Assembly (NCBI GenBank): GCA_035628875.1
Contig: DASPIZ010000135.1
Span: 50,875-114,874, forward strand
Source of the DNA: Ohtaekwangia sp.
Lineage (GTDB): Bacteria; Bacteroidota; Bacteroidia; Cytophagales; Cyclobacteriaceae
Direction: 5' to 3'
DNA length: 64,000 bases
How positions within the stretch are numbered: position 1 is the first letter of the stretch; each line of letters starts with the position of its first letter. Positions 1,118 through 43,890 of the stretch are shown here, piece after piece. Below the pieces are notes generated by a model. It saw only the letters and a program-made list of their open reading frames with translations. It was not told the DNA's origin and searched no databases. Both the position numbers and the translations under genes were made by a program.

Positions 1118-1458
1118 GTACGAGCGTGTAGAAGAAGCTACGAGCCAATAGCTTTGAGCCGCGTTTGTTTTGATAACTAACAAGTTTCCGATAACACCTT
1201 CGAACAGGTGTAGGGCCAGGTTACTAGATTTTTAACCATCCCCGTTCAGCTATTCGCTGAACATTCCCTCCTTATTCAAGGATGGGAGTTGGGGGCTGCA
1301 TCTCAATCGGTGGCCAGGAACATTCAACAATTTCGATATCAGTTCGTTGTCGAGGACCGACCTCAAACTTCAAACCTCAAACATCAAACGTCAAACAATT
1401 TCACTAACCCATCGTTTTCGAAATTTCAAACTTTCAACCATGAACCTTGAACCATGAA
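1118..1458 (-). repeat. Composite heptamer cassette, copy E (degenerate), between convergent genes
   Basis: 5 in-phase units cctcaaa/cttcaaa/cctcaaa/catcaaa/cgtcaaa at 1361-1395; ccatgaa/ccttgaa units ~1424-1458 abutting the stop at 1459; gctacga-type units 1118-1185; hairpin ccctcctt-attc-aaggatggg at 1266-1286. Confidence 0.8.
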
Positions 1459-2235
1459 CTATTTCCGCTTATTCATCGACTGTAACCTCTCGTTGACAAA
1501 AATCAATTCGGCATTGACCTGTTCGGTTGCGCGTGCCCGGAACATAAGTTCTTCATTGAGACGTTCGAGGTGAAGGGTTCGCTGGGCTATTTTTTGTTCG
1601 ATCGTCTGGTCCATAGTCCTTAATTCTGTTTCTGCTTTCACCTGGGCTGTGACATCACTCAGGAGGAACAATAATTTACGATTGTTGTTTCGCACAGCCT
1701 CAAGCTGAATAATGACTTCTTTTTTCTCATTATTAGTCATTCGCCAACTGCCTAATTTCCGATAGCTGTCGGTCAGGCGATTCGAAACAGACTGACTCAT
1801 AAAGCGATCGCGCTCTGATTCAATAATCAGGTCTTGCAGGTGCATCGTTCTAAATCCAATAGCATCGTAACCGAATATTTTTTGAGCCGACTCGTTGCTA
1901 TCTGAAACCTGAAGCGTTTTTACATCAACCAAAATTAACGGACATGGATTTTTTAAAAACAAGTTGTGATTCTCCTGGGTTTTAGTCATCAACGATTGAT
2001 GAAGATCATGGACGAGGTAAAAAAGAAATCCACCGGTTACCCCGATAAACATTACCCCTTTTAGGATGTGGATGTGCGACATTTCCAGCAACATGTTATC
2101 CGGCCCCATCCACGACAAAATCGAATCCGAAAAAAGGATCCAAAGCATACCTAAAACGACATACTTAACGGTGAGTGACACCGCAGGGCTCACAAGCTCT
2201 TTAGCTTCCGGAGAAACAGCATTTTGCTTAAGCAT
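1459..2235 (-). CDS. Membrane-anchored PAS-domain protein with C-terminal coiled coil and no kinase domain
   Basis: Two N-terminal hydrophobic segments; PAS-like LFLKNPCP...NESAQKIFGY...DVT; ends after a coiled coil with no H-box. Confidence 0.7.
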   Translation of the reverse strand: MLKQNAVSPEAKELVSPAVSLTVKYVVLGMLWILFSDSILSWMGPDNMLLEMSHIHILKGVMFIGVTGGFLFYLVHDLHQSLMTKTQENHNLFLKNPCPLILVDVKTLQVSDSNESAQKIFGYDAIGFRTMHLQDLIIESERDRFMSQSVSNRLTDSYRKLGSWRMTNNEKKEVIIQLEAVRNNNRKLLFLLSDVTAQVKAETELRTMDQTIEQKIAQRTLHLERLNEELMFRARATEQVNAELIFVNERLQSMNKRK

Positions 2236-2421
2236 CCTTATATGGCGATAAAATCAAAAAGAAAAGACTGCAAAGTACGTAGCAGCTGCTGTTCGGAGAC
2301 CTCAACTTTGGATCTAGGTTGTTTCGTGTAAGTTTTTCGTTTAATCTTCCGAAATGATGGTTGGTTAGGCATTTTATCGGGATGAATCCAATGTAGAGAT
2401 TCAAGCAAAAGCCAGGAAAAG

Positions 2422-2493
2422 TGGTCCCACCGGGAATCGAACCCAGATCTAGAGTTTAGGAAACTCCTATTCTATCCGTTGAACTATGAGACC
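2422..2493 (-). tRNA. tRNA-Arg(CCT)
   Basis: Reverse complement is GGTCTCATAGTTCAACGGATAGAATAGGAGTTTCCTAAACTCTAGATCTGGGTTCGATTCCCGGTGGGACCA: 7-bp acceptor stem, anticodon loop TTCCTAA, GTTCGATTC T-loop, CCA not fully encoded. Confidence 0.97.
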
Positions 2494-2536
2494 TTAAAAC
2501 CAGCAGGAAGTTGCTCCCGGATGGAAAAATGTGCCG

Positions 2537-2544
2537 CAAAGATA
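2537..2544 (-). promoter_or_regulatory. Bacteroidota sigma-70 -7 element (TATCTTTG) upstream of tRNA-Arg
   Basis: Exact TAnnTTTG match ~45 bp upstream of the tRNA. Confidence 0.65.
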
Positions 2545-2679
2545 TAAGTTTAAGCTAAATATGGATAAATCTCACAGCCTTTGACAAGGGATAATTTTTG
2601 CAACCTCGGCTTAGAATTTCATTTTTGAGCAGTCCAAAGAAACCGTCACATACCCTGACATCCGGAGATTACACGCTAA

Positions 2680-3399
2680 TTATTTTTGTTGTGCGCCAAA
2701 CACACGTTTTAATAATTCAGTAGTGCGGGCTGCGGGATTAGCACGAATGTTCTTCTCCTCTTTGGCAATCATCACAAACAAACCTTCTATCGCTTTGTCT
2801 GTTGCATAATCATCCAGGTCGGGATTCACTTTTTGTACCATTGGAATCTGATTATACCGCGTTACGATGTCACTGTAATATCTTGTAGCATTCACTTTCT
2901 CCAGGCTCTTTCGGATAACCGGTTTGAATTTTTCCTTTAGCTGGGCAGACGTTGTACGTACCAGAAATTGGGTGGCTGCATCCTCTTCACCACGGAGTAT
3001 TGCCCAAGCATCATCGATTGTCATTTGTTTGATGGCCGTTATAAAAATTGGTTTAGCCTCCTTAGCCGCATCTTCAGCACCCCGATTCAACGTGAGTATG
3101 AACTTATCCACTTCTTTTCCCAGGCCAACCTGGCGTAACCGGTCTTCCACTTTTTTTACGTCGGGCGGAAATGGAATTTTTATTTCCGGATTTTTAAAAT
3201 AGCCATCCAGTTGTGAGGCAATATCAGATCCGTTGCTTATTCCTTTTATTAATGCTTCTTTTAAACCCTCAGTAACTTCCAAAGTTGTCAATGCCTTATC
3301 ACCGCCAATCACCTCACTCACCTCGCCCAATGTCTGGTTGATCTGAGCTGTTGTACAACCCAACAATAAAACAGATAAAATTAAAATACTCTTTTTCAT
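2680..3399 (-). CDS. DUF4197 family lipoprotein
   Basis: Lipobox-like LLLGC; GLKEAL, LNRGAEDAAKEA, IAKEEKNIRANPAARTTELLKRVFG motifs. Confidence 0.9.
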   Translation of the reverse strand: MKKSILILSVLLLGCTTAQINQTLGEVSEVIGGDKALTTLEVTEGLKEALIKGISNGSDIASQLDGYFKNPEIKIPFPPDVKKVEDRLRQVGLGKEVDKFILTLNRGAEDAAKEAKPIFITAIKQMTIDDAWAILRGEEDAATQFLVRTTSAQLKEKFKPVIRKSLEKVNATRYYSDIVTRYNQIPMVQKVNPDLDDYATDKAIEGLFVMIAKEEKNIRANPAARTTELLKRVFGAQQK

Positions 3400-3594
3400 A
3401 TCAATATGCTGTTAAGCTGAACCGTTACCTTCCGATTATATTGCGACTGAAAGGTAATCATTTCCAACTAATTCTATGCCCGGTTCATCTGTTGCTGAAA
3501 CCTTTGTATACACTAATGCATCAGACGTTTGTTTATTAACCAAGACTGGTTTCCTTTGTAGAACGTTGACTGTTGAGCGAATTCAAAATGACTT

Positions 3595-4839
3595 ATGAAA
3601 ATTATTGTAGCCGAGTTATTAACCATAGGTGATGAACTACTCTATGGACAGATCACAGACACCAATTCAAAATGGATGAGTGTTGCATTAAGTGATGAAG
3701 GAATTAAGGTAATCAGAAAAACAACCGTCGGAGATCAGGAAGACGAAATACTTACAGCCCTTGCTGAGGCTGAGCGCCGTGCAGATATTATTTTGATAAC
3801 GGGTGGCCTTGGCCCCACCAATGATGACCTTACAAAACCTTGTCTTGCAAAATATTTTAACTGTGGCCTTGCACTTCATGAAGAAGCTTTAAACGAAGTA
3901 ACAGCTTTTTTTCAAAGCCGGGGGCGAGCACTCACAGAAATGAATCGTCAACAGGCAATGCTGCCGGTCTGCTGCAAGAAAATTACCAATGCGATGGGTA
4001 CTGCTCCGGGAATGTGGTTTGAAAGAAATGGTAAAGTGTTTGTATCTATGCCAGGGGTGCCCCATGAGATGAAAACCATGATGACCAACATCATCATACC
4101 AAAATTAAAGGAGACCTACGCTACGCCTTTTATCTACCATAAGGTTATCCGAACGGTTGGCATTGGAGAATCGTTTCTCGCGGAGAAAATTTCCACGTGG
4201 GAAAGAGCGCTTCCTTCGCACATCAGACTCGCATATCTGCCAAGTTTAGGTGAAGTGAAATTACGACTCACATCCATCGGTGCCGATCAGGACATTCTAG
4301 AAACACAAACAGAACAGCTTATAACACAGTTAAAAGATCTGGCTGGTGAATACATCTATGGTTATGGTGAAGATCCGCTCGAAGTCGCGCTTGGCAAAAC
4401 ACTACGCGAAAAAAAATTAACGGTAGCAGTTGCGGAAAGCTGTACAGGTGGATATTTATCACATCTCATCACGAGTGTTCCGGGCAGCTCCGATTACTTT
4501 CTTGGGAGTCTTATTCCCTACGCCTACGAAATTAAAATGCGTGAACTGGGTGTGAACCAGGAAACACTCGATCAACATGGTGCGGTAAGCGAACCGACAA
4601 TAATCGAAATGGCAAGTCTCGTACGAAAGAAATTCAAGACACGTATTGGTGTGGCTACCAGTGGCATCGCCGGACCTGCGGGTGCTACACCGGAAAAGCC
4701 TGTTGGCACCGTATGGATTGCTTATTCCGATGAAGACAAAACTGTTACACGCAAATTGCAATTGAGTTCGGACAGGCTCATTAATATCCGTTTGGCGTCG
4801 CTGGCTGCATTAAACCTGATGCGTTTGAATTTAGCCTAA
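3595..4839 (+). CDS. cinA: Competence/damage-inducible protein A (MoCF-biosynthesis-like + NMN deamidase domains)
   Basis: IGDELLYGQITDTNS, GGLGPTNDDLT, AESCTGG, SGIAGP motifs. Confidence 0.95.
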   Translation: MKIIVAELLTIGDELLYGQITDTNSKWMSVALSDEGIKVIRKTTVGDQEDEILTALAEAERRADIILITGGLGPTNDDLTKPCLAKYFNCGLALHEEALNEVTAFFQSRGRALTEMNRQQAMLPVCCKKITNAMGTAPGMWFERNGKVFVSMPGVPHEMKTMMTNIIIPKLKETYATPFIYHKVIRTVGIGESFLAEKISTWERALPSHIRLAYLPSLGEVKLRLTSIGADQDILETQTEQLITQLKDLAGEYIYGYGEDPLEVALGKTLREKKLTVAVAESCTGGYLSHLITSVPGSSDYFLGSLIPYAYEIKMRELGVNQETLDQHGAVSEPTIIEMASLVRKKFKTRIGVATSGIAGPAGATPEKPVGTVWIAYSDEDKTVTRKLQLSSDRLINIRLASLAALNLMRLNLA

Positions 4840-5015
4840 AGCAATAGCGTACGAAATTTTATCGTACGTAAGCAATTGTAGATGGACGTTTTGTTTTCTC
4901 TAACGGCAGATCAGACATAGATTTTTTCGATATTGGAAAAACATCAGACAGAAAACGTTTCCAGAAGTGAAAACAATCAAAATTATTTAACTTGCCACGA
5001 AATTAAGACCACACT

Positions 5016-6311
5016 ATGGCACAGGTACAACTTATAATGCCGAAGATGGGCGAAAGCATCATGGAGGCCACCATCCTTAATTGGTTGAAAAAGTCCGGTG
5101 ATAAAATCGAACAGGACGAATCTGTATTGGAAGTAGCCACGGATAAAGTAGATACAGAAGTTCCTTCTACGCATGCCGGTGTACTGAAAGAAATATTAGC
5201 AAAAAAAGGTGATGTTGTACCTGTGGGTAAACCCATCGCCATCATCACAACCGACGTTGAAGAGGACAATGATTCAACTTCAACTTCACCCGCGCTGGCA
5301 ACGTCACATACAATGCCAATGGCGCAAGCTGCCACAGACGTCAAAAGCAACGGTACTTCGCATAGCGTTCCTGATTATCGCACGGTTTCACGGTTCTATT
5401 CTCCGCTGGTGAAAAATATTGCACGTGAAGAGAACATCCCCGTCAGCGAACTTGAAACAATAGAAGGCTCCGGTGCAGAAGGTCGTGTCACAAAAAAAGA
5501 TATACTTCATTACATCCGGCACCGTAAGACAGGTTTTGTGTCCAAGCCGGCCCAGCAAGCGATAACCACATCGCAACCAAAAGTTTACTCATCGGTAAAT
5601 GCCGGTGATGAAATCATTGAGATGGACCGTATGCGAAAAATGATTGCGGAACGTATGGTTGATTCAAAACGTATTGCGCCACACGTCACCTCTTTTGTAG
5701 AAGCCGATGTGACCAACGTGGTGATGTGGCGGAACAAAGTAAAAGGGGAATTTCAAAAACGCGATGGTGATGTACTCACGTTCACACCAATCTTTATGGA
5801 AGCTGTCGTGCTTGCTATTAAAGATTTCCCGATGATCAATGTGCAGGTAGATGGTGACCGCATCATCAAGAAGAAAGACATAAATATTGGGCTCGCAGTC
5901 GCTTTACCCAATGGAAATCTGATCGTACCGGTTATCAAAAATGCTGATCAATTTAGTATCGCCGGATTAACAAAAGCGGTTAACGATGTTGCACGCAGAG
6001 CCCGCGAGAATAAACTAAAGCCCGATGAGCTTACCGGTGGTACATTCACCATTTCAAACGTGGGATCATTTGGCAATGTAATGGGCACACCCATCATACT
6101 ACAGCCACAGGTTGGTATCATTGCCCTTGGTGCAATCCAGAAAAAACCCGCCGTAATGGAAATGCCCTATGGCGATGTGATTGCGATAAGGCACAAAATG
6201 TTCCTTTCCCATTCGTATGATCATCGTGTCGTAGATGGCGCCCTGGGCGGCAGCGTGGTACGCAGGGTAGCCGATTACCTGGAAAGATTTGATCTGAACA
6301 GAACGATATAA
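5016..6311 (+). CDS. Dihydrolipoamide acyltransferase (E2) of a 2-oxoacid (probably branched-chain) dehydrogenase
   Basis: Lipoyl motif ATDKVDTEVPS; E3-binding GSGAEGRVTKKD; catalytic SYDHRVVDG. Confidence 0.95.
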   Translation: MAQVQLIMPKMGESIMEATILNWLKKSGDKIEQDESVLEVATDKVDTEVPSTHAGVLKEILAKKGDVVPVGKPIAIITTDVEEDNDSTSTSPALATSHTMPMAQAATDVKSNGTSHSVPDYRTVSRFYSPLVKNIAREENIPVSELETIEGSGAEGRVTKKDILHYIRHRKTGFVSKPAQQAITTSQPKVYSSVNAGDEIIEMDRMRKMIAERMVDSKRIAPHVTSFVEADVTNVVMWRNKVKGEFQKRDGDVLTFTPIFMEAVVLAIKDFPMINVQVDGDRIIKKKDINIGLAVALPNGNLIVPVIKNADQFSIAGLTKAVNDVARRARENKLKPDELTGGTFTISNVGSFGNVMGTPIILQPQVGIIALGAIQKKPAVMEMPYGDVIAIRHKMFLSHSYDHRVVDGALGGSVVRRVADYLERFDLNRTI

Positions 6312-6333
6312 TCGCATTTTTAATGAAAAGAAC

Positions 6334-6424: not shown

Positions 6425-7048
6425 ATGGCTAAAATTATATCTTTTATCAGCCGTAAAGGCGGCACGGGAAAAACAACCAACGCCATTAATCTGGCAACGA
6501 CCTTGCATCATTTGGGTAAACGCGTGTTGCTTATAGAAACGGATGCCAACTACACTTTAAATACCTTACGTAAGATGGAGGTCTTCAAATCAAAGCATGC
6601 CAATAATGCCTTTGAAATACAAGGCTCCCAGGACAATCAAGTAGGCGAAGAACTTGTCACGCTGAAAGAGAATCGAAAACTAGATTTTATCCTGGTTGAC
6701 AGCGCCGGGAAAACCACGGATGAAGGAATAAAAAAACTTTGCCTTGTAAGCGATGTTGTTATTGTACCAACAAGTCTTACGCAAAATGACTTACTGGTAA
6801 CCTATCAAACAGTGACCGACCTCGGCCCTGCGCGTCAGTTAAATCCAAAACTTAAAATTGTTGTGCTGCCAAATCGAATCCACAGCGCCACCAACGCATA
6901 TACCGTGCGTGAGCATCTTAAAAACCTGGACGCATTAATTCTTCCGGTGATCGTTCCGCAGAAAAATCTTTTTGTAAATTTCAGTACCCTGGAGGCTGAA
7001 AAGGAATATATTCCCGTTGCCCAGGCTATTTTAAACTACTGCGCATGA
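6425..7048 (+). CDS. Short ParA/MinD-family ATPase
   Basis: Deviant Walker A RKGGTGKTT, Walker B ILVDSAG, SDVVIVP. Confidence 0.9.
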   Translation: MAKIISFISRKGGTGKTTNAINLATTLHHLGKRVLLIETDANYTLNTLRKMEVFKSKHANNAFEIQGSQDNQVGEELVTLKENRKLDFILVDSAGKTTDEGIKKLCLVSDVVIVPTSLTQNDLLVTYQTVTDLGPARQLNPKLKIVVLPNRIHSATNAYTVREHLKNLDALILPVIVPQKNLFVNFSTLEAEKEYIPVAQAILNYCA

Positions 7049-7404
7049 GTAAGAAGAAAAACACGCTAAAAGATCTTGATGAGTTTCTGAAACAACAAGC
7101 TGCTTCGCTCGTTACCCCAGAACCCGTGAACATGCCAGTACAAGAACCGGCAACAGTATCACCCGCAAAATCTGAAGGTGAGGAACCAACAGCAGATAAA
7201 ATTATTTCTCAACTCAGCGCTCTCGCTAAACAAAATCCTAATCACTTCCGCACAATCCTATACGACATCATTATCAAATCACTTGAACAACTTCCGCATT
7301 CGCTACCCGAAGACAAAATGCTGATCAATACATCTCTCTACTTAAAAAGTGGCGACCAATGGAAGGATGTGATACGGAAGTATTGGAAGGAATATGGTTC
7401 ATAG
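7045..7404 (+). CDS. Hypothetical protein, putative ParA partner
   Basis: ATGA overlap with parA; basic N-terminus MSKKKN, Pro-rich linker, helical C-terminus. Confidence 0.75.
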   Translation: MSKKKNTLKDLDEFLKQQAASLVTPEPVNMPVQEPATVSPAKSEGEEPTADKIISQLSALAKQNPNHFRTILYDIIIKSLEQLPHSLPEDKMLINTSLYLKSGDQWKDVIRKYWKEYGS

Positions 7405-7530
7405 TTCATGGTCCAAAGTTCAAAGTTGGAGTTCGATAACGAAGCGTTTGCGACATTGTTTTGAGGTTTGACGTTTGAGTTTGATTTGTTTTCGATAACG
7501 ATGAGATTTGGCATTGTTTGAGCTTGCTCA
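7396..7530 (+). repeat. Composite heptamer cassette, copy A (left modules)
   Basis: ggttcat/agttcat/ggtccaa/agttcaa/agttgga, then ttcgataacgaagcgttt and tttgagg/tttgacg units as in copies B and C. The first unit overlaps the last codons and stop of the upstream gene. Confidence 0.85.
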
Positions 7531-7941
7531 TGCTCAGAATTTAAACCTGCGGTCCAAACAAGGTTGAGATGACAAGCCTTACCAATTATAACCGTACAAC
7601 TGCTTGGCTGTCGTCAATACTTACCTTTGCTTCTTGTTATTATCGATATATCCTCGAAAATTCACACAAGACATACTCGAATTTACGAACGTATCAAATA
7701 ATGCTTCGCTGGCTGAATCAATGCTCCGAAGGAGCTAAATATGGATAGCCGCGAGCGAAGCTCGTGGCCAATATTCCGACATTAAGCATGTGCCACAGGT
7801 GCAAGTGGATCAGGAGAAAAACGCTCATGGCACACAACATGAAAATTGTGATCGAAAGAAAGCCAATCTTATTTTATCTCCTGATCTAATAAGTTATCCA
7901 AATCTACTTGGACCTTATATGTAAGAACCGAAGACACTTAA

Positions 7942-8210
7942 GCTCGAATCAACCAACCTCGCAGATCGTAACTCAAAGCGCGTAGCTAACTCAAAATCCA
8001 ATTATTAGGAAAAACGCCTTGCAGCTTAAAGCCTGCAGCCTGACGCTTATCAAAAACACATCAGTTAAGACCAACAAACTCGCGGCTCGCAGCTCAAAGC
8101 TCGCGGCTTTTTGAAAGCCCACCGCTTCGCACGCCATCAAACTTTAATTTCTCTCAACATTTTTACTTTCAACTTAAACCATGAACTTGGAACCTTCGTT
8201 GAACCTTCAA
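7942..8210. repeat. Heptamer cassette modules (right modules twice, plus an inverted ttcaagg-type module)
   Basis: caaactcgcggctcgcagctcaaagctcgcggct; cttgcagcttaaagcctgcagcctgacgctta; aaccatgaacttggaacc just before the 8220 start. Confidence 0.75.
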
Positions 8211-8219
8211 TTTAAAAAT

Positions 8220-14345: not shown

Positions 14346-15380
14346 TTGCAGTCAAAAAAGATTTTCCTCGGCAACTTTACCTTTACCTATATCGCATGGT
14401 GGCTGGTGTGGGCTGCCCTTCAAACGGTGGTAGTAAGCTATTCGTTTGGCTTTGACTGGACCGTTGCGCTCAAGGATGCATTATTAACCAATGCCGTCCT
14501 TGGACTTGCAGGATATGAAATGATTCTTGTAATGCGCTATTACCAACCACGCCAGAGCTTACGTATCATCTGGACTATCGGCCTCACTGTTCTATGTATC
14601 ACCTTTGTAAAATGGCTATTGAATCAGTGGCTTCAGGATGAATCAGACTACCTATTATTTATCGACAAATGGTTAGTGGTACGGGGGCTTTTCGCCTGGC
14701 TTATCATCAGCTTTGTTACCCTGATAAGCTGGATGTGGTTTTATATGCAGGAACAACAGGAAATTCAATTGCGCAAAGCGGATACGGAAAAACTTGCGCG
14801 TGAAGCAGAACTCTCAACCTTACGTCAGCAATTGCAACCACACTTCCTGTTTAACAGTCTCAATTCGATCAGCGCATTAGCAGGCTCACGTCCGGAAGAA
14901 GCACGTAAAATGATTCAGCAGCTTTCCGATTTTCTTCGCGGTACAATTAAACGGGATAACGTGCAACTCATCCCTTTATCCGATGAACTTTCACACCTGG
15001 AGCTTTATCTTGAAATTGAAAAAGTACGCTTCGGACACCGCTTAAAAACGGAAGTACACCAAGGTGATAACACATCCGATTTGCTACTGCCATCTCTCTT
15101 ACTGCAGCCCATTGTAGAGAACGCAATCAAATTCGGTTTATATGATACCACGGGAGAAATCACCATCCGCATTGATGCCAGCAACCAAAATAATTACCTG
15201 ATGCTCACTGTTCAGAATCCATTTGACCCGACGACATCACAGCCGCGACACGGTACCGGGTTTGGACTGAGCTCTGTACAACGGAGACTATACCTGCTTT
15301 ATGGGCGAAACGACCTGTTAACCACAAAGCAACACAATTCAATTTTTACAACAGCAGTACAGATTCCCCAAAACAGATGA
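14346..15380 (+). CDS. LytS/YehU-type sensor histidine kinase
   Basis: QLQPHFLFNSLNSI, LLQPIVENAIKFG, GTGFGL. Confidence 0.95.
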   Translation: MQSKKIFLGNFTFTYIAWWLVWAALQTVVVSYSFGFDWTVALKDALLTNAVLGLAGYEMILVMRYYQPRQSLRIIWTIGLTVLCITFVKWLLNQWLQDESDYLLFIDKWLVVRGLFAWLIISFVTLISWMWFYMQEQQEIQLRKADTEKLAREAELSTLRQQLQPHFLFNSLNSISALAGSRPEEARKMIQQLSDFLRGTIKRDNVQLIPLSDELSHLELYLEIEKVRFGHRLKTEVHQGDNTSDLLLPSLLLQPIVENAIKFGLYDTTGEITIRIDASNQNNYLMLTVQNPFDPTTSQPRHGTGFGLSSVQRRLYLLYGRNDLLTTKQHNSIFTTAVQIPQNR

Positions 15381-16114
15381 TCACCACCATTCTTATCGAC
15401 GATGAACCTTTGGCCAGAAGCATCACGCGCGAGTATCTGGCATCTTACTCCGATATTCAAATCGTACAGGAATGTAACGATGGCTTCGAAGGCGTTAAAG
15501 CCATCACACAGCACAAGCCGGATTTAATTTTTCTCGATATCCAAATGCCGAAAATAAATGGGTTTGAGATGCTGGAACTCCTGGACCCATGTCCCTCCGT
15601 AATATTTACCACCGCATTCGATGAATATGCAATCAAAGCTTTTGAAGCACACGCCATTGATTACCTGCTAAAACCTTATAGCAAAGAGCGGTTTGATAAG
15701 GCTATGCAAAAATGGTTGCAGCAAAAAAACAACAACGCAATAGTCAATGAAAAAACCCTACCGGAAAACATACGCCAACCAGAAGAGCGAAATCGTATTG
15801 TTGTAAAAGAAGCCGGAAACATCAGGATCATTCCGGTTCATGAAGTGTTATACCTTGAAGCATATGATGACTACGTAAAGATACACACATCAAAAGAAAT
15901 GTTCCTGAAAAAGAAAACCATGAGTTTTTACGAGCAATCACTCGACGAACACCAATTCGTTCGCGTACACCGATCGTACATTATTCAGTTATCTCAACTC
16001 ACACGCATCGAACCGTTCGAAAAAGACAGTCATATCGCACGCTTGAAAAACGGAACTAAAATTCCCCTTAGCAAAAGCGGATACACAAAACTTAAAACCG
16101 TTCTCGGAATGTGA
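15377..16114 (+). CDS. LytTR-family response regulator
   Basis: REC domain (IDDEPLA, FLDIQMP) plus LytTR FVRVHRSYII; overlaps the kinase stop (ATGA). Confidence 0.95.
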   Translation: MITTILIDDEPLARSITREYLASYSDIQIVQECNDGFEGVKAITQHKPDLIFLDIQMPKINGFEMLELLDPCPSVIFTTAFDEYAIKAFEAHAIDYLLKPYSKERFDKAMQKWLQQKNNNAIVNEKTLPENIRQPEERNRIVVKEAGNIRIIPVHEVLYLEAYDDYVKIHTSKEMFLKKKTMSFYEQSLDEHQFVRVHRSYIIQLSQLTRIEPFEKDSHIARLKNGTKIPLSKSGYTKLKTVLGM

Positions 16115-16118
16115 GGCA

Positions 16119-16463
16119 GGTTCAGAGTTCAAGGTTCAGAGTTCATGGTTCAAAGTTCATGGTTCAAAGTTCAAAGTTTAAGGTTGGAGTTCGATAACGA
16201 AGCGTTTTGTGAATTGTCTGAAGTTAGAGGTTTGAGGTTGGTCTCCGATAATCATGATGTTTCCTGTCCTTACCATCATCCTGACGCGACTGTGCTCAAG
16301 CACATGTATGCAGAAGGATTCCCTAACTCGAGCGAAAAAATGTTTCGTTAGCAAAATCAAATTAAAAAACTGTTAGTATAGAAATTCACATCAATTACGA
16401 TCAGCAAACTCGAGGCTCATAGCTCACAGCTCGTAGCTATTCCCAAACCCAACAATATTCGAC
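16119..16463 (+). repeat. Composite heptamer cassette, copy B (near complete)
   Basis: 10 in-phase heptamers 16119-16188 (ggttcag agttcaa ggttcag agttcat ggttcaa agttcat ggttcaa agttcaa agtttaa ggttgga), tttgagg module, catcctga...gaaggat core, gctcgta module. Confidence 0.9.
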
Positions 16464-16467
16464 ATCG

Positions 16468-16646
16468 CCTTTGCGTGACTCTGCGGCTTTGCGGCTCCTA
16501 TGTTTGCGGTTAAGCGTATTTATCAAATTGCGATAGTACAATGGTAGTGTTTTTCTCACCGCGAAGTCGCGAAGACGCAGAAGTACGCGAAGTGTTAAAT
16601 AGGATTTTACTTTGCGAAACTTTGCGTCTCAGCGCCTCTGCGGTTA
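16468..16646. repeat. 8-bp-periodic imperfect hairpin repeat (cgcgaag / ctttgcg family)
   Basis: accgcgaagtcgcgaagacgcagaagtacgcgaag (16558-16592) pairs with ctttgcgaaactttgcgtctcagcgcctctgcggtt (16610-16646); an extra right arm sits at 16468-16513. Confidence 0.75.
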
Positions 16647-16671
16647 AGTTGTTACCAAATTAGTGTCGAAA

Positions 16672-16800
16672 ACGCATCAATTACGATCAACAAACTCGAG
16701 GCTCGTAGCTCACAACTCGTAGCTTTTCGAAAAAACATATAAATAGTCGAAAACAACTTACCGCTTGCAGCCTATAGCCTGAAGCTTACCAGAAACCGCA
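16672..16800 (+). repeat. Heptamer cassette, right modules only (copy I)
   Basis: catcaattacgatcaacaaactcgaggctcgtagctcacaactcgtagct is nearly identical to 16388-16438; gcttgcagcctatagcctgaagctt module follows. Confidence 0.85.
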
Positions 16801-16822
16801 TCAAACAACGAAACCAAAAACC

Positions 16823-19204: not shown

Positions 19205-19328
19205 ATGAGAGAACGTTAGCGGTGGAGTTAACGCGATGACAATAAATATACCACAAATCAAACCCTGAAAATCAATTCAAATACGAAGATCACAGGTATC
19301 ACAATGTTCATTTATGAACGGGGTGAAC

Positions 19329-19690
19329 GTTCATGGTTCAAAGTTCAAGGTTGGACATTCGATAACGAAGCGTTTTGTGAAATTGTTTGAGGTTTGAGGT
19401 TTGAGGTTGGTTTCCGATAATGATGAGATTCGGAATTTGTTTGAGCTTCCTTTTTCGTTACCGTCATCCTGATGCGACTGTGCCTCGGCACAGTCATGCA
19501 GAAGGATCCCCCGATCGTGAGAAAAATGTTTCGTTGGCAAAATCAAACTGAAAAACTTGTTAGTATTGAAAACCACATCGATTATGCCCAACAAACTCGA
19601 GGCTCGAGCTCGCAACTCGCAGCTTTTCAAAAAACTCATCAATAATCGAAAATAGCTTGTTGCCTGTAGCTGCACCAACACACACCTACT
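19329..19690 (+). repeat. Composite heptamer cassette, copy C (complete)
   Basis: Same module order as B; shares the 24-bp identity ttcgataacgaagcgttttgtgaa with B; perfect hairpin gactgtgc-ctcg-gcacagtc inside gtcatcctga...gaaggatc. Confidence 0.9.
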
Positions 19691-19705
19691 ATCGAAATCA
19701 ACCAC

Positions 19706-23263: not shown

Positions 23264-23284
23264 CTTGTGTGGAGATTCTTATGT

Positions 23285-23560
23285 GTGTGGCTCTGAGCTG
23301 CAAGCTTTAAGCTTCAAGGATCAAGGGTATTTTCGAATATTTGGAAGTTTGGCGAAAGCTGCGAGCGTTGAGCTACGAGCCGCGAGTTTATTGGCCATAA
23401 CCGATGTGGCTTTCTGTACTAACAAGCATCAGGATGACGATAACGAGAGGGAAACATCATCGTTATCGAAACCAACATCAAACATCAAACATCAAACACT
23501 TTCGCAAAACGTTTTCGTTACCAACTCCAACCTTGAACTTTAAACCTTGAACCTTGAACC
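23285..23560 (-). repeat. Composite heptamer cassette, copy D (internal 81-bp deletion)
   Basis: The reverse complement has all modules in order, but gtcatcctgatg is joined directly to cttgttagta. Confidence 0.9.
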
Positions 23561-23564: not shown

Positions 23565-24648
23565 TCACCCCTGTGCTCCCAGTAAAAACGCTTTGATAAA
23601 ATCATCGAGTTCACCATCCAATACGTTTTGCGCGTCGTGGCGTTCTACCCCGGTTCGCGCATCTTTCACAAGTTTGTAAGGATGCAAGACATAGTTGCGT
23701 ATCTGCGAACCAAAATCTATTTTCATTTTACCGGCTTCAATTTTATCGCGCGCAGCGTTTCGTTTTTGTATCTCCAGTTGATATAGCTTCGATTTCAACA
23801 TCTGCATGGCGCGTTCTCGGTTCGCATGTTGCGAGCGCTCTACCTGGCAGACAATAACGATCCCGGTTGGCTTATGCGTAAGCTGTACTTTGGTTTCAAC
23901 CTTGTTTACATTCTGACCTCCTGCCCCACCGGATCGGGATGTTTGGATTTCGACATCCGCTGGATTTACCTCAATCTCGATTGAATCATCGACTTTGGGA
24001 TAAACAAAAATCGAAGCAAACGATGTGTGTCTGCGGTCATTGGAATCGAAAGGTGAAATGCGAACCAACCGATGAACACCAATCTCACTTTTTAGTTTAC
24101 CATAGGCAAATGGACCTTCGATTTCAAGCGTTGCGCTTTTAATACCCGCCACCTCGCCTGCCTGATAATCAACCTGCGATACCTTGTAACCATTTTTTTC
24201 ACCCCACATGATGTACATGCGATTGAGCATGTCGGCCCAGTCCTGGCTTTCAGTTCCCCCGGCGCCAGGGTTAATCTCTACAACGGCACTAAGCTGATCC
24301 TCTTCTTTGCTCAACATTTTTTTGAATTCAAGCTCTTCAACCGAATGGTTTACGCGCTTGTATTCACGTTCCAACTCCTCCTCCCCTACATCACCGACTT
24401 CATGAAACTCATTGAGTACCTCCAGGTCATCAACCCGCTTTCGGACTTCATCGAAAGCATCGGTCCATATTTTTTTCAGACGAATACTTTTGAGCATGAC
24501 TTCTGCGTGTTTAGGGTTATTCCAGAAATCTGCTTGTTGTGTAATAAGTTCTTCGTCGTTTATTTCAAGGCACTTACGATCGTAGTCAAAGATACCCCCT
24601 CAAGGCACTAACGCGAGCCTTCAAATCTTTCAATTGATCTGTTGTCAT
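23565..24648 (-). CDS. prfB: Peptide chain release factor 2 with programmed +1 frameshift
   Basis: ATG at 24648 gives 20 codons [20 protein letters not shown], then CTT-TGA-C (24591-24585) with the internal SD AGGGGG 3 nt upstream; the +1 frame continues DYDRKC... and contains SPF and GGQ motifs. Confidence 0.97.
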
Positions 24649-27468: not shown

Positions 27469-27503
27469 TCCCAATCCCTGATGCCCAATGCCTAATTCCC
27501 AAT
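27469..27503 (-). repeat. Heptamer array (5 units, attggga/attaggc family)
   Basis: + strand tcccaat ccctgat gcccaat gcctaat tcccaat, 2 bp from the stop at 27506. Confidence 0.8.
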
Positions 27504-27505
27504 CG

Positions 27506-29182: not shown

Positions 29183-29273
29183 ATTAGGCATTAGGCATTA
29201 GGTATTAGGTATTAGGTATTGGGTATTGGGTATTGGGTATTGGGTATTGGGTATTGGGTATTGGGTATTGGGG
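29183..29273. repeat. Heptamer VNTR, 13 units
   Basis: attaggc x2, attaggt x3, attgggt x7, attgggg x1, in phase. Confidence 0.97.
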
Positions 29274-33107: not shown

Positions 33108-33156
33108 GTGTTGGGGTTCTATAAAAGATAAAAGTAATAAATTATCGAAGAATAAA

Positions 33157-33650
33157 GCCACTAAGGCACCAGGACACTAAGAAGAAATACCTCTTGTAGT
33201 TTGCATTCCTTCGTGTCTTCGTGCCTCGTGGCTTCATATCGCACGCTCAATCAAAAATTGACGCCACTAAGACACCAGGACACTAAGAATACCTACCACC
33301 TTTTATACTTTGAATTCCTTCGTGTCTTCGTGCCTTCGTGGCTTCATATAGCACACTTCATTAACATTAACGCCACTAAGGCACCAGGACACTAAGAAGA
33401 AATACCTCTTGTAGTTTGTATTCGTTCGTGTCTTCGTGCCTCCGTGGCTTCATATAGCACGCTCAATAAAACTTGACGCCACTAAGGCACCAGGGCACTA
33501 AGAATACCTACCACCTTTTATAGTTTGAATTCCTTCGTGTCTTCGTGCCTTCGTGTCTTCATATAGCACATTTCATTAAAATTAACGCCACTAAGGCACC
33601 AGGACATTAAGAAGAAATACCATTTTTATAGTTTGTATTCCTTGATGTAT
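33157..33650. repeat. Tandem array of alternating 106/109-bp palindromic units
   Basis: Units start at 33157, 33263, 33372, 33478 and 33587 with gccactaag(g/a)caccagg(a/g)ca(c/t)taagaa; units 1=3 and 2=4 by loop sequence; the fifth unit is degenerate. Confidence 0.95.
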
Positions 33651-39076: not shown

Positions 39077-39140
39077 AGTTAGGGATTGAGTATTAGGTAT
39101 TAGGCATTAGGTATTAGGGGTTGGGTATTAGTGTCTTGGG
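39077..39140. repeat. Heptamer array (tattagg family)
   Basis: agttagg gattgag tattagg tattagg cattagg tattagg ggttggg tattagt. Confidence 0.85.
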
Positions 39141-39262
39141 TGTTACGATCAGTGATGATTGTTGATATGGACGTAAATGAAGACTTTTATACAATGGCGC
39201 TATATTTATAAAGCTTTCAAATAAATGGTTATGAAGTTTTAAGATGAAGTTTAAAGCATACG

Positions 39263-40240
39263 ATGAAGATTTTCGAACGATTAAATAAAGTCGGGTTAAA
39301 TACATTCTTTCTGCTTATACTGGGCATGGTAGGGCTTGCATGGCTTGCACCATCGTATGGAACAAACCAGAGTCATTTACCACTTCAACCGATCAGTTAT
39401 TATGGCGTTTCACTGATTTTTTTCTTCTATGGTCTTCGGCTAAGCGCCATCGCACTCTGGAAGGGATTATCCCATTGGAAAATACATCTCGTCATACAAG
39501 GCACCACCTTTGTGTTGTTTCCTTTGATCGCATTATTGTGCTATGAATTTTTTCACAGTCAGACTTATGCATTATTGTGGATCGGTTTTTTTTATCTCGC
39601 TGCACTGCCTTCTACGGTGTCATCTTCTGTAGTAATGATTTCTATCGCCGGAGGAAATTTACCGGCCGGAATTTTTAATGCCAGCGTTTCCAGTGTATTG
39701 GGAATTTTAATGACGCCGCTCTGGATGAGCATGTTCATTGTAAATACAAACAACACACAGAATTTTCTCCATGTCATCTTAAGCTTGTGTCTTCAGGTAC
39801 TCTTACCCTTTATTCTTGGATTGTCCCTTCATCGCTACCTCGGCCGTGTGGCCGAAAAACACAAGACCATATTACGATACTTCGACCAGGCGGTTATCTT
39901 ATTAATTGTTTACCGTGCCTTTTGTGAATCGTTTTACAATAAAATGTTTTCCGGGTTTACCACTTTAGAAATTTTTACCCTGGGTGGTTTAATACTGGCA
40001 TTCTTTTTACTGATGGCAGCTTTGATGTATATCTTATCCCTAGTCATGAAGTTTTCACGCGAGGACCGCATCACCATACTTTTTTGCGGATCAAAGAAAT
40101 CGCTTATTCAAGGGGTTGTGATGGCGCAGGTATTATTTTCGAACCAGGTATCACTGGGAATTATACTTCTTCCACTCATGCTATACCACACGCTACAACT
40201 TATAGCGGGAAGCATCATCGCAGAACGATTGTCAAAATAA
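39263..40240 (+). CDS. Bile acid:sodium symporter family protein
   Basis: FFFYGLRLS, LPSTVSSSV, GNLPAGIFNAS, FCGSKKSL. Confidence 0.93.
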   Translation: MKIFERLNKVGLNTFFLLILGMVGLAWLAPSYGTNQSHLPLQPISYYGVSLIFFFYGLRLSAIALWKGLSHWKIHLVIQGTTFVLFPLIALLCYEFFHSQTYALLWIGFFYLAALPSTVSSSVVMISIAGGNLPAGIFNASVSSVLGILMTPLWMSMFIVNTNNTQNFLHVILSLCLQVLLPFILGLSLHRYLGRVAEKHKTILRYFDQAVILLIVYRAFCESFYNKMFSGFTTLEIFTLGGLILAFFLLMAALMYILSLVMKFSREDRITILFCGSKKSLIQGVVMAQVLFSNQVSLGIILLPLMLYHTLQLIAGSIIAERLSK

Positions 40241-40315
40241 CATTTGAGCTATACATTGTTTTGTCATTGGACCAAAAACTAGAACTCAGGCGTTAAAATT
40301 TTCGGTATCAATCGG

Positions 40316-40350
40316 AAAAAAAAGAGCCGTCACTTTCGCAACGGCCCCTC
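40316..40350 (-). terminator. Intrinsic terminator of the catalase gene
   Basis: Minus strand gccgttgcgaaagtgacggc followed by tc and T8. Confidence 0.75.
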
Positions 40351-40355
40351 CATCA

Positions 40356-41870
40356 TTAAAACAAATTATTACCGGGTTGCATCATTCCGGCTTCGATGCT
40401 TACACCCAATCCATCCGCGACACGCAAGCCTAACCCTGGATCGCAGCGAAAAAAGTGACAAAGCTGGCGATTAACAATAAGCTCTTTTTTTGGACCAGAA
40501 ATCGCTTTCATGGAACCGACAATATTCTTTACAAGGTTTATTCTTTCTTCTTCAGTTAACACCCTTTTATACAACCAGCCCGGCTGTGTATAATGATCAT
40601 CTTCGCCAGGGGCATTGCGATCATACCAATCCGCTACAATGGCATCCAACGAAAGTGCAGGTTCTTTGTATGCAGGATCAGGATAGATGGCATCGAAACT
40701 ATTGGGGAAATAATTTGGCGCAGATCCTCCGTTGCCATCAACGCGCATGGCACCGTCACGTTGATAGTTATGCACCGCATATGGGCACTTATTAACCGGG
40801 ATCTGCTCATAGTTTGCACCCAAACGATAACGATGTGCATCCGGATAAGATAAAATTCTTCCCTGCAACATCTTGTCAGGTGAATAACCGACGCCATCAA
40901 TAACATGGGCAGGAGCAAAAGCAGCTTGTTCAACTTCCGCAAAATAATTTGACGGGACTTCGTTTAACTCCATCACACCAACATCAATCAACGGAAAGTC
41001 TTTCTGTGGCCAAATCTTAGTAAGATCAAACGGATTAAAGTTAAACTCCTGAGCCTGCTGTAACGTCATGACCTGGACCTTCAGTGACCACTTCGGAAAA
41101 TCCCTCCGATCTATGGCTTCCACAAGATCGCGTTGCGCCTGATCGAGATCTTTTGACTTCATCAAATCGGCTTCATCTGCGGTAAAATTTTGAATTCCCT
41201 GTTGTGATTTAAAATGAAACTTTACCCACACAATGTCATTGTCCTTATTCACTAACGAAAATGTGTGACTTCCAAAACCATGCATATGCCGGTAACTGTA
41301 CGGCGTACCCCGGTCACTCATTACAATCATCACCTGGTGCAGGCTTTCCGGATTTAACGACCAGAAATCCCACATCATCGTTGGACTTTTAAGATTCGTA
41401 CGGGGATCACGTTTTTGCGTGTGAATAAAGTCATCAAACTTCTTGGGGTCTTTGATAAAAAACACAGGTGTGTTATTGCCTACCAGATCCCAGTTACCCT
41501 CTTCTGTATAAAATTTAACCGCGAAGCCACGCGGATCGCGCTCAGAATCTGCGCTTCCTTTTTCACCACCTACTGTTGAGAACCTTGCCAACACACGGCA
41601 TTCATTTCCGACATTACCGAAGAGTTTAGCACGTGTATACTTAGAAATATCATGGGTTACCTTAAATGTACCATACGCTCCGGTTCCTTTTGCATGGACA
41701 ACACGTTCAGGAATTCTTTCGCGGTTGAAGTGCGCCATCTTTTCATGCAAAATGAAATCCTGAAGTAAAACCGGACCACGCGGTCCTGCAGTCATACTGT
41801 TTTCATGTTCTACATAAGGCTTTCCACTTGCAGTGGTGAGTTTGTGTTTTTGTTCTTTTCCGTTTTCCAT
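40356..41870 (-). CDS. katA: Monofunctional heme catalase
   Basis: FNRERIPERVVHAKG, VGNNTPVFF, RILSYPDAHRYR; small-subunit size (504 aa). Confidence 0.95.
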   Translation of the reverse strand: MENGKEQKHKLTTASGKPYVEHENSMTAGPRGPVLLQDFILHEKMAHFNRERIPERVVHAKGTGAYGTFKVTHDISKYTRAKLFGNVGNECRVLARFSTVGGEKGSADSERDPRGFAVKFYTEEGNWDLVGNNTPVFFIKDPKKFDDFIHTQKRDPRTNLKSPTMMWDFWSLNPESLHQVMIVMSDRGTPYSYRHMHGFGSHTFSLVNKDNDIVWVKFHFKSQQGIQNFTADEADLMKSKDLDQAQRDLVEAIDRRDFPKWSLKVQVMTLQQAQEFNFNPFDLTKIWPQKDFPLIDVGVMELNEVPSNYFAEVEQAAFAPAHVIDGVGYSPDKMLQGRILSYPDAHRYRLGANYEQIPVNKCPYAVHNYQRDGAMRVDGNGGSAPNYFPNSFDAIYPDPAYKEPALSLDAIVADWYDRNAPGEDDHYTQPGWLYKRVLTEEERINLVKNIVGSMKAISGPKKELIVNRQLCHFFRCDPGLGLRVADGLGVSIEAGMMQPGNNLF

Positions 41871-41946
41871 GATAAGCAGTTGTTATTTGTGATACGAAGG
41901 TGTCCCAGGCCGTGCGCTAAAACAAAGCGAAAGTTTTTATATCCGT

Positions 41947-41961
41947 ATAGACAGAATCTAT
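41947..41961. promoter_or_regulatory. Putative OxyR half-site upstream of catalase
   Basis: ATAG-acagaat-CTAT matches ATAG-N7-CTAT exactly. Confidence 0.55.
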
Positions 41962-41966
41962 TACTA

Positions 41967-42170
41967 AGTTCAAGGTTCATGATTCAAGGTTAAAAGTTTG
42001 TGTTCTGTAACGAGTGGCAGACGAACTAATTTGAGGTTTGAGGTTTGAGGTTTGAAATGCCCTCATAGCTTGATACTGATTGGATGCAAAGCTCGCTTTA
42101 GCATTCAAAACCTAATTATAATTAGTTAACCGGAAACCAACCTCCAACATCAAACGTCAAACCTCAAACA
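41967..42170. repeat. Heptamer cassette copy F with an inverted tttgagg pair
   Basis: ttcaagg units from 41967; tttgagg x3 + tttgaaa (42030-42057) opposite cctccaa catcaaa cgtcaaa cctcaaa (42141-42168). Confidence 0.8.
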
Positions 42171-42185
42171 GTTCTGCACAACCCG

Positions 42186-43106
42186 TCACCTCCACGTCAC
42201 CCGAATGTACTTTTCGTTCTTTTTAAAATGTGCGGGAATAGCTTTTAGTATGGCTTGCCTGAGTTTATCAAGAAGCATTTCCTTGACAAATCCGTTGTGT
42301 ACCACCAGGCTTACTTCGCGTACGGGTTCCGGTGCGTTGAAATGTTTGACGTGTTTGTTCTTTGAATCAACCGCGAGTTCGGGAATGAGTGTATAACCGT
42401 AGTTGTTATCTACCATTGCTTTCAATGTTTCAAACGAACCGCTCTGGTAATTCAGCTGATTATGGGTTTTCTTTTGTTTCGCAGAGCAAAGGTTTTCAAC
42501 CTGTCCACGGAAGCAGTGTCCTTCTTCCAATAAAAGCAGGTTGTCGTACGAAAGCGATTTAACGTTGATTTTTTCCTGTTGAAAATACTTGAGATGTTCG
42601 GCAGTGTATAACAGAATAGGTTCGTAAAAAATCGGGATCTCCCGGATTTCGCGGTCGTCAACCGGTGTTACCAATATGGCAACATCCAAACGATTTGTTT
42701 TTAACATTCTGATAATCTCTTCGGTTTGCAATTCCATTACCGTAAAAGATGTACCGGGATGTTTCTCCAGGAACTTATTTAAAAACTTAGGCAATAGGTA
42801 AGGCGCTAACGTAGGAATAACACCGAGGCGAAATTCACCTTCGATGGAATCTTTTTCATTTCGAATGAACTCCTTTAGATTCTTAATCTCTTGTAAAATC
42901 TGCCGCGCCCTCGAAATAATAATTTCCCCTGACTTTGTTGGCTTTAACGGCTGACCTTTGTCAAAGATTTTAACGCCGAGCTCATCTTCAAGCTTTTTAA
43001 CCATCATACTGAGCGTGGGTTGTGTCACGTTACAGAAATTTGCGGCTTTGGCATGGTTCCGATGAATATCCAGCGCAATTATATATTCCAGTTGTTGCAA
43101 GTTCAT
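42186..43106 (-). CDS. oxyR: Hydrogen peroxide sensor, LysR family
   Basis: LysR HTH (CNVTQPTLS); LEEGHCFRGQVENLC with the two redox cysteines; adjacent to catalase and ahpCD. Confidence 0.93.
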   Translation of the reverse strand: MNLQQLEYIIALDIHRNHAKAANFCNVTQPTLSMMVKKLEDELGVKIFDKGQPLKPTKSGEIIISRARQILQEIKNLKEFIRNEKDSIEGEFRLGVIPTLAPYLLPKFLNKFLEKHPGTSFTVMELQTEEIIRMLKTNRLDVAILVTPVDDREIREIPIFYEPILLYTAEHLKYFQQEKINVKSLSYDNLLLLEEGHCFRGQVENLCSAKQKKTHNQLNYQSGSFETLKAMVDNNYGYTLIPELAVDSKNKHVKHFNAPEPVREVSLVVHNGFVKEMLLDKLRQAILKAIPAHFKKNEKYIRVTWR

Positions 43107-43156
43107 TCGATTGCGCTCTAATCTAAAACGGTGTCATAAACAAAACTAATAAGTTG

Positions 43157-43193
43157 ATAACAAATATCAATATTGTTTATAACATTTCCATTG
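43157..43193. promoter_or_regulatory. Putative OxyR operator in the oxyR-ahpC divergent region
   Basis: ATAA-N7-CAAT-N7-ATAA spacing; partial match to ATAG-N7-CTAT-N7-ATAG-N7-CTAT. Confidence 0.4.
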
Positions 43194-43234
43194 CTATTTT
43201 CGCGGCATCATTAAATAAAAAATTTTTAAGACGT

Positions 43235-43792
43235 ATGACAAAAGGTATTTTATCAGTAGGTCAGACTTTCCCTAAGTTCAAGAAAAGTGCAGTAGTTTCC
43301 CTTGAAAAAGGAAAAGAATTTTACGACGTCTCTTCGGATGAATTGGTAAACGAAGAAGGTCGCTGGACGGTGATGTTTTGGTGGCCAAAAGACTTCACAT
43401 TTGTTTGTCCTACAGAAATTGCAGAATTCAACAAAAATTATGGAGAATTCAGAGATCGTAATGCCAACTTAATTGGCGCTTCAACAGATTCTGAATTCGT
43501 TCACCTGGCGTGGAGAAAAAATCATGACGATCTGAGAGATCTTAAGTTCCCTATGCTGGCCGATACATCAAAAACCCTGGCCGAAGATTTGGGTATTCTT
43601 GAAGCAAATGAAAAGGTTGCTTATCGTGCAACGTTTATCATCGATCCTCAGGGTATCGTTCGTTGGGTAAGTGTAAATGACCTCAATGTAGGCCGCAACG
43701 TGAAAGAAGTAATCCGCGTGCTGGATGCATTGCAAACCGACGAACTCTGTCCTTGTAACTGGGAAAAAGGAAAAGAAACGATTAAAGCTTAA
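43235..43792 (+). CDS. ahpC: Peroxiredoxin (alkyl hydroperoxide reductase C)
   Basis: WPKDFTFVCPTEI, LCPCNW. ATG 43235 preferred. Confidence 0.95.
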   Translation: MTKGILSVGQTFPKFKKSAVVSLEKGKEFYDVSSDELVNEEGRWTVMFWWPKDFTFVCPTEIAEFNKNYGEFRDRNANLIGASTDSEFVHLAWRKNHDDLRDLKFPMLADTSKTLAEDLGILEANEKVAYRATFIIDPQGIVRWVSVNDLNVGRNVKEVIRVLDALQTDELCPCNWEKGKETIKA

Positions 43793-43890
43793 AGGTTCAA
43801 GCGGTTCAAGGTTCATGGTTTAAGGTTCAAAGTTAGGCGTTCGAATAACACCAGAATTTCGACATTGTTTGAAATTTGATGTTTGGTTAC
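43793..43890 (+). repeat. Heptamer cassette copy G (left modules)
   Basis: ggttcaa ggttcat ggtttaa ggttcaa agttagg starting 1 bp after the ahpC stop, then tttgaaa tttgatg. Confidence 0.8.

Follow-up and report, generated by a model that had tools for sequence, protein, structure and literature searches.

The stretch of DNA analysed here, called the window throughout, comprises 64,000 nucleotides of an Ohtaekwangia sp. genome (C135:50875-114874 of assembly G000, which holds 5.59 Mb in 164 contigs). Between its genes, among them prfB, which encodes RF2, and the gene of a ParA-partner protein, lie copies of a cassette built from tandem heptamer arrays. We name its modules, in the order in which they follow each other, L1, J1, L2, J2, core K, J3, R2, J4 and R1. 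The arrays are L1, (RGTTCAW)n; L2, (NGTTTGA)n or (GTTTGAK)n; R2, (GCTCGYA)n; and R1, (GCTTGMA)n, and the junction J1 between L1 and L2 reads GGTTGGA-GTTCGATAACGAAGCG…. The first-pass annotation of the window had listed three near-complete and six partial copies without a transposase. All nine were recovered at the places and on the strands it had given, heptamer arrays were detected in each of them by Tandem Repeats Finder (TRF), and the window copies indeed carry no transposase. The coordinates are collected in Table 1, where arrays are those found by a strict scan that required at least three in-phase heptamer units with at most one mismatch per unit.

Table 1. Heptamer cassettes, core hairpins and strict-scan arrays in the window.
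Feature	Coordinates	Strand	Modules and position
Cassette	1118..1460	-	L1 1433-1460, overlapping the TAG stop of gene 1459-2235 (AAA-TAG-TTCATGG…); J1; L2 1363-1397; filling; R2-like units near 1118-1160
Long cassette	7394..8180	+	In the gap separating the ParA-partner gene from the gene that follows it; L1 7396-7423, J1, L2 7458-7478, J2, unrelated sequence over ~450 nt, R2-like units, R1 8017-8051, R2 8078-8105
Cassette A	16115..16822	+	Occupies the convergent gap 3' of the stop of gene 15377-16114; L1 16119-16181 (9 units), J1 (TTCGATAACGAAGCG...), L2 16215-16235, core K ~16267-16349, J3 and R2 16415-16435, nested foreign repeat 16469-16674, second J3 and R2 16701-16721, J4, R1 16763-16790
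Core K of copy A	16267..16349	+	One of a 108-copy family
Cassette B	19328..19690	+	Antisense relative to both flanking genes; L1 19328-19348, J1, L2 19384-19404, J2, K ~19455-19537, J3, degenerate R2 ~19596-19625, J4, short R1-like end
Core K of copy B	19455..19537	+	P1 AUCCU:AGGAU, 2x2 GA/GA internal loop, P2 UGC:GCA, 2-nt bulge, P3 GACUGUGCC-UCG-GCACAGUC
Cassette C	23285..23560	-	Begins 4 nt past the TGA stop of prfB (RF2, 23565-24497, -); L1 23533-23560, J1, L2 23478-23498, 5' half of K only, J3, R2, J4, R1 23299-23319
Simple form	41967..42170	+	L1 41967-41994, J1, L2 42028-42055, 87-nt loop, L2' 42143-42170
Short left-half copy	43793..43890	+	Directly 3' of the TAA stop of gene 43154-43792; L1 43803-43830, J1, start of L2 43866-43886
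L1 arrays	1433-1460(-), 7396-7423, 16119-16181, 19328-19348, 23533-23560(-), 41967-41994, 43803-43830		Strict scan
L2 arrays	1363-1397(-), 7458-7478, 16215-16235, 19384-19404, 23478-23498(-), 42028-42055, 43866-43886		Strict scan
R2 arrays	8078-8105, 16415-16435, 16701-16721		Strict scan
R1 arrays	8017-8051, 16763-16790, 23299-23319(-)		Strict scan

The copies differ in length and completeness. Relative to cassette B, cassette C has an internal deletion of 81 nt, and in the simple form the right arm is L2', a true reverse complement of L2, which also takes the place of R2 at other loci. An exact block of 24 bp (TTCGATAACGAAGCGTTTTGTGAA) had been reported for 19329-19690 and 23285-23560. The block exists, but it is common to 16119-16463 and 19329-19690, and the pair first named shares no more than 16 bp exactly.

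The recurrence noticed in the window extends over the whole genome, where three of the intergenic regions gave more than 1000 BLAST matches across many contigs. The strict scan found 701 arrays of the four families, compared with a single one in a base-shuffled genome. These arrays form 283 clusters on 92 contigs and span 60.7 kb, and each family has a median of four units per array, with a maximum of 13. Period 7 is dominant among the tandem repeats (822 of 2465 TRF rows), and on a crude map of open reading frames (ORFs) 608 of 801 merged heptamer arrays are intergenic. Inverted array pairs number 74; pairs at kilobase distance are uninformative, since the heptamer families are so common. A fixed order of the modules had been claimed, and L1, L2, R2, R1 is indeed kept in 160 of the 186 single-strand clusters that contain at least two families, where 54 would be expected at random. 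About 15 long copies found by BLAST likewise keep one common module order, within which [K-J3-R2] units may be iterated (e.g. C47, C2:28691, C21). Cassette regions on different contigs are identical to a median of 77% and up to 92-95%, a spread that suggests copies of many ages. In plasmid and phage collections, nothing resembling K, or K together with J3, was found.

The most striking feature of the cassettes is their polar placement, exact to the stop codon. A same-strand stop codon lies upstream of 106 of 167 clusters that begin with L1, at a median gap of 1 nt and with a mode of -2, the latter being the arrangement NNN-TAG-TTCAWGG…. Among the 102 stops within 15 nt of L1, 59 (58%) are TAG, 27 TAA and 16 TGA, while the genome-wide ORF set (n=4407) has 899 TAG (20%), 2325 TAA and 1183 TGA. 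Thirteen ORFs extend 7-20 nt into an array and end at a TAG or TAA that the array itself bears. The rule is valid for arrays of any heptamer family. At the right end there is no comparable abutment: 127 G-rich array ends but 10 C-rich (right) ends lie within 15 nt of a stop. Polarity resides in the L1 end, which is placed in sense on the upstream gene's native stop and in many cases provides that stop itself. The ParA-partner protein (7045-7404) is an example. It ends …YWKEYGS*, where GS, its two final codons, and the terminating TAG come from the first L1 unit, and it is 1-2 residues longer than its counterparts in eight congeners, which end …YW followed by 3-4 residues. RF2, for its part, aligns up to the last residue in about 80 relatives. 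Judged by such comparisons of protein ends, the cassettes are insertions at the native stop and not truncations. About a quarter of the cassettes (52 of 230) stand antisense within co-directional gaps.

At two loci, the orthologous sites of up to 19 congeners lack the cassettes, and comparison with these relatives indicates that they are lineage-specific insertions. For gene 1459-2235, a search for orthologues gave no close relatives. RF2 has its best relatives in metagenome-assembled genomes of uncultured Bacteroidota/Cytophagales (92% amino acid identity), followed by the Chryseolinea, Ohtaekwangia, Chryseosolibacter and Dawidia group with 82-90% identity, and the region 3' of prfB takes several forms among relatives. 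Two of them (L006, L008) have a plain terminator hairpin, and two others (L024, L029) have gene-less inverted arrays of other heptamers. In L011 the gene is followed by TAA-(TCGGTRR)n, a TIGR02436 gene of 134 amino acids and a complementary array that ends 2 nt before the start of the next gene. Arrays of the same kind surround the remnant of a TIGR02436 gene start in L021, so that gene-less arrays can arise from gene-bearing ones. The prfB site has been struck repeatedly in different lineages, always at the stop codon, and the heptamer sequences are species-specific.

The centre of the cassette is formed by the core hairpin K, of which iterated nhmmer searches found 108 copies in this genome. 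Its consensus consists of TTACCGTCATCCTGA, a variable hairpin, GAAGGATCCCC, a small second hairpin, an A-run and GATTCGT; as seen from copy A, the family reads TTACC(G/A)TCATCCTGA, variable hairpin, GAAGGATYCCC and an A-rich tail with a TTCGTT end. A consensus computed with RNAalifold from 60 copies aligned by MAFFT was weak, since the alignment misplaced the variable hairpin. The structure was therefore read from per-copy folds and anchor-based pair counts. Individual copies fold alike into a P1 stem (AUCCU:AGGAU), a symmetric GA/GA loop, a P2 of 3 bp, a bulge of 2 nt and a P3 of diverse sequence, with a median z of -3.5 and z < -2 in 82% of copies. The two subfamilies differ in P2 (UGC:GCA or AUU:AAU), and P1 is ATTCT:AGAAT in other genomes versus ATCCT:AGGAT here; the core keeps its fold through sequence change. 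K usually lies between L2 and R2 and is oriented like the arrays in 63 cases and opposite to them in six. Within the genus, the K pattern matches 54 times here, 9 times in G419 and 12 times in G001, and 17 further species have no match. Outside it, among about 400 genomes of the order, K is intergenic only in two other genera of the same family, and matches in G022 and G043 apparently fall within coding sequence. In one genus, g24 (G366, G395), K stands among short tandem repeats of different sequence. L1 arrays are also present in K-free congeners, and the modules therefore spread independently. Rfam gave nothing on the cassettes at gathering score or at E values up to 5, its sole match in the window at gathering being a tRNA. 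Two known motifs were considered for K by reasoning from its sequence and rejected. A hammerhead (CUGAUGA…GAAA) would have conserved A9 and A15.1, which K does not, and a k-turn would have a 3-nt bulge beside the GA/GA loop, which is missing. Hairpins of the K-b type also occur in a BIME-like cluster (BIME, bacterial interspersed mosaic element) of about 2 kb, in alternating orientation and spaced every ~200 nt, at G000:C119:8100-10300 and also at C44:30180-31450 and 78550-79000.

The arms on both sides of the core can pair. The predicted fold of copy C is a single extended, nested hairpin of -85.8 kcal/mol (z = -3.25), and its opposite strand reaches -77.5 kcal/mol (z = -2.9). The description of the element as pseudo-palindromic is borne out by this fold, in which L1 pairs with R1 and L2 with R2. 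R2 itself is not the complement of L2. L1:R1 pairing covers 6 of 7 positions and L2:R2 pairing 5 of 7, one of them a wobble, so that mismatches recur periodically along the stems. Over 91 compact cassettes the sense strand is more stable by 7.0 kcal/mol, and it is the better-folding strand in 69 of them.

The first-pass annotation had pointed to heptamer arrays that flank four-helix-bundle (4HB) genes of the TIGR02436 family in Bacteroidota, and this link is true here. Four of the five TIGR02436 genes of the genome adjoin arrays, and in three cases these form a clear inverted pair around the gene. Two carry arms of the cassette heptamer families, namely the gene on C18, with L2/L2' arms and the TGA of the upstream gene within the first L2 unit, and the gene on C121, with R1'/R1 arms. 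A third (G000:C8:30308-30625) has ATTRGGN arms, and the gene on C119 adjoins an 8-mer family on its upstream side only. In the window, inverted ATTRGGN arrays at 27470-27504 and 29183-29272, of the same family as the arms of the C8 gene, surround two genes. As had been noted, no PF05635/TIGR02436 gene lies in the window cassettes, and we therefore class these as gene-less relatives and not as full members.

The space between the arms houses K, an octamer element, a miniature inverted-repeat transposable element (MITE), an IS200-like gene and 4HB genes. The octamer element is the nested repeat of cassette A, about 200 bp of octamer runs (CTTTGCGG… / CGCGAAGT…) at 16469-16674. BLAST returned 15 hits for it, spread over 13 contigs and 84-94% identical, and it is flanked by a J3-R2 duplication of ~70 bp that is 87% identical. 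The MITE, of the classical type and ~350 bp long, has TTAGTGTCCGGGA terminal inverted repeats and TA flanks. Its two copies (G000:C16:83442-83795 and C91:75450-75802) are 92% identical and are nested beside arrays of two different cassettes. The IS200-like gene has its own terminal repeats and sits inside an L1-L2…R2 cassette. A transposase with L1/R1 ends was looked for and none was found. The genome also contains two Y1 transposase genes resembling the transposases associated with repetitive extragenic palindromic sequences (RAYT and REP, respectively), at G000:C14:30195-30542 and C160:835-1176. Each is flanked by its own palindrome family, e.g. GCCGTGAGCTTCAGCTCACGGC, and as these palindromes differ from K and from the heptamers, we rejected a RAYT link of the cassettes.

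The first-pass annotation had proposed a non-autonomous mobile or recombinogenic element or a repeated structured module. Our data support this proposal: the cassettes occur far beyond the window, are absent from orthologous sites in relatives and match no family in Rfam, other heptamer arrays, with or without a 4HB gene, occupy the prfB site in other lineages, and the core hairpin retains its fold while its sequence changes. More specifically, we think it likely, with a probability of roughly 0.6, that the cassettes are gene-less, nested, mosaic hairpin elements with heptamer arms, which are tolerated at the ends of cistrons and there probably undergo processing as RNA. A gene-carrying form of such elements exists, in which an S23p/TIGR02436 gene lies between inverted heptamer arrays. 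In our reading, this class also takes in the heptamer repeats of Xanthomonas and Nostoc and the S23p-type intervening sequences (IVS) of 23S rRNA. The mosaic would arise as a new hairpin and other small elements settle within existing hairpins, and through recombination between arrays, changes of unit number and internal deletions. A cassette would form the 3' tail of the upstream gene's transcript and fold as RNA, and RNase III might trim it as it does an rRNA IVS, by which the insert would be tolerated at the end of a cistron. Spread would depend on a factor acting in trans and not on a transposase gene inside the element, and 4HB paralogues with the same arm heptamers are the obvious candidates for this factor.

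Several observations weigh against this interpretation. No movement, target-site duplication or enzyme has been seen. The genome has just five 4HB genes and about 800 heptamer arrays, and we found none of these genes with L1 or R2 arms. R2 is a poor complement of L2, and cassette B is antisense to both of its neighbours. The closest genomes belong to different species, with 76-81% nucleotide identity in the flanking genes, and for this reason insertion borders cannot be aligned; cassette ends look like TAGTTCAAGG…CCTTGAAGCTA, and no empty site is similar enough for a target duplication to be read. Furthermore, composition-matched shuffles already yield 4.8 of the 7.0 kcal/mol by which the sense strand folds better, so that the strand test does not decide whether the structure acts as RNA or as DNA.

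Similar repeats have been described in other bacteria. In Xanthomonas, (GGGAATC)n arrays occupy about 185 loci per genome, with a mode of four units and 70-75 convergent pairs. Their G-rich strand lies within 50 bp of a stop codon or overlaps it; most are transcribed, and their function is unknown (Rehm et al. 2015, PMC4692102). TAACTGA repeats are found in Beggiatoaceae, Cyanobacteria and five Bacteroidetes (MacGregor 2015, PMC4679880). The cassettes resemble these repeats, as well as the Nostoc repeats and the cyanobacterial short tandemly repeated repetitive (STRR) heptamers, in being tandem heptamers at hundreds of intergenic loci with four units as the commonest number. They further share with them a G-rich coding strand at or over the stop codon, frequent convergent pairs and the lack of a transposase. 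Unlike those repeats, they combine four families, nested in a fixed order, and also possess a structured core K and junctions that are conserved but not repetitive. The stop donated by the array (with its TAG excess), the 4HB link, the nested guests and units that do not form G-quadruplexes are further differences. The general class of heptamers in sense orientation at stop codons, often as inverted pairs, has been published (PMC4692102). We found no published description of the fixed two-tier mosaic, of the K hairpin or of stop-codon donation.

In Coxiella burnetii, the 23S rRNA carries an S23p-bearing IVS with heptamers in its RNase III-cut stem (Warrier et al. 2016, PMC4990558). As in such ORF-bearing IVS of Coxiella and Leptospira, inverted tandem-heptamer arms form a long stem in the cassettes, and the insert is sense-oriented in a region that is presumably transcribed. 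In contrast to the IVS, the window cassettes are gene-less, lie past the stops of protein genes rather than in rRNA helix 45 and have two-tiered, imperfect arms; their processing by RNase III is a proposal. Like the REP/BIME elements of enterobacteria, they are high-copy extragenic palindromes combined with short motifs in a regular mosaic, often near stops, and other insertion sequences settle in them. They differ from these in having tandem heptamer arrays as arms instead of single palindromes, and other repeats accompany the RAYT genes of this genome. With a MITE the cassettes share short size, absence of genes, dispersal, inverted ends and intergenic position, but no defined terminal repeat matching a transposase and no target duplication was found for them, and their length varies with unit number.

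A host function could explain the placement as well. The cassettes might be selected RNA modules of 3' untranslated or intercistronic regions, in which the G/U-rich heptamers and K set mRNA 3' ends, stability, termination or coupling and are kept for the benefit of the host. We regard this as unlikely, although it would fit the strict sense polarity and the abutment to stop codons, the fold of K with its compensatory P1 changes across genera, and the ordinary terminator hairpin that congeners have at the prfB site where the cassette sits here. The predominant transcription of the Xanthomonas repeats (PMC4692102) would fit too. What speaks against it is the patchy occurrence, with K in 3 of 20 members of the genus and cassettes missing from orthologous sites, together with functionally unrelated flanking genes and the quarter of cassettes that are antisense in co-directional gaps. 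Besides, no T-tract lies 3' of the hairpins, and base composition explains the strand asymmetry in folding.

The same polarity may be taken further, to a mobile system of a new kind that works without a transposase, an idea which as a whole we regard as unlikely. Its mechanism would read the end of translation or the stop context, the left arm landing in sense on the stop and being able to replace it. One 4HB paralogue per heptamer family would recognise the periodic stem, which would pair L2 with the C18 gene, R1 with the C121 gene and ATTRGGN with the C8 gene. K, conserved across genera while its surroundings change, would be the cis site of a further enzyme. If true, this would join the excess of heptamers in bacterial genomes, the 4HB/S23p family and the rRNA intervening sequences.

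Growth in place is improbable. According to this explanation, microsatellites would have expanded by slippage at gene ends and become alike by gene conversion, with no pre-formed insert. Unit numbers do vary freely around the median of four, up to 13, heptamer sequences differ from species to species, and in some relatives the first units resemble the gene end, e.g. CAGTAA-type units after …AAACAGTAA of prfB. However, J1-J4 and K are 70-95% identical across loci on different contigs and stand in a fixed order, and slippage neither makes inverted partner arrays nor sets a 4HB gene between them.

Least convincing is the view in which a RAYT (Y1) transposase moves K as a REP-like hairpin and the cassette is a local BIME equivalent. 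It would account for K as an imperfect hairpin of ~45 nt whose 5' tail is single-stranded and conserved and whose top varies, and which is present in more than 100 intergenic copies and in tandem or alternating clusters (e.g. C119:8200-10070), in a genome that encodes Y1 transposases; E. coli REPs also cluster close to stop codons. It is very unlikely, given that both RAYT-like genes are flanked by different palindromes of their own and that L1 arrays exist in K-free congeners.

In many bacterial genomes, no other long simple repeats are as over-represented as heptamers. Read as heptamer-armed hairpin elements, the cassettes make this genome an unusually rich and rule-bound case, with a grammar of four families, a core hairpin that crosses genera, exact and polar placement at stops, which the arrays may donate, and 4HB genes with the same arms. 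They also affect annotation, through altered protein C-termini and stop usage, spurious ORFs and probable assembly breaks. Two ORFs, 19331-19705(-) of 124 amino acids and 23265-23543(+) of 92 amino acids, lie wholly inside cassettes B and C and are very likely spurious, held open by the repeats. Cassette copies that are 96-99% identical stand at contig ends, e.g. C14:1-525 versus C142:42277-43063 and C5:137-392 versus C2:28663-29269, which suggests that the repeats break short-read assembly. Elsewhere in the window, a higher-order tandem repeat of 109/215 bp with octamer runs (CTTCGTGN) occupies 33153-33643 and has BLAST matches on two contigs only.

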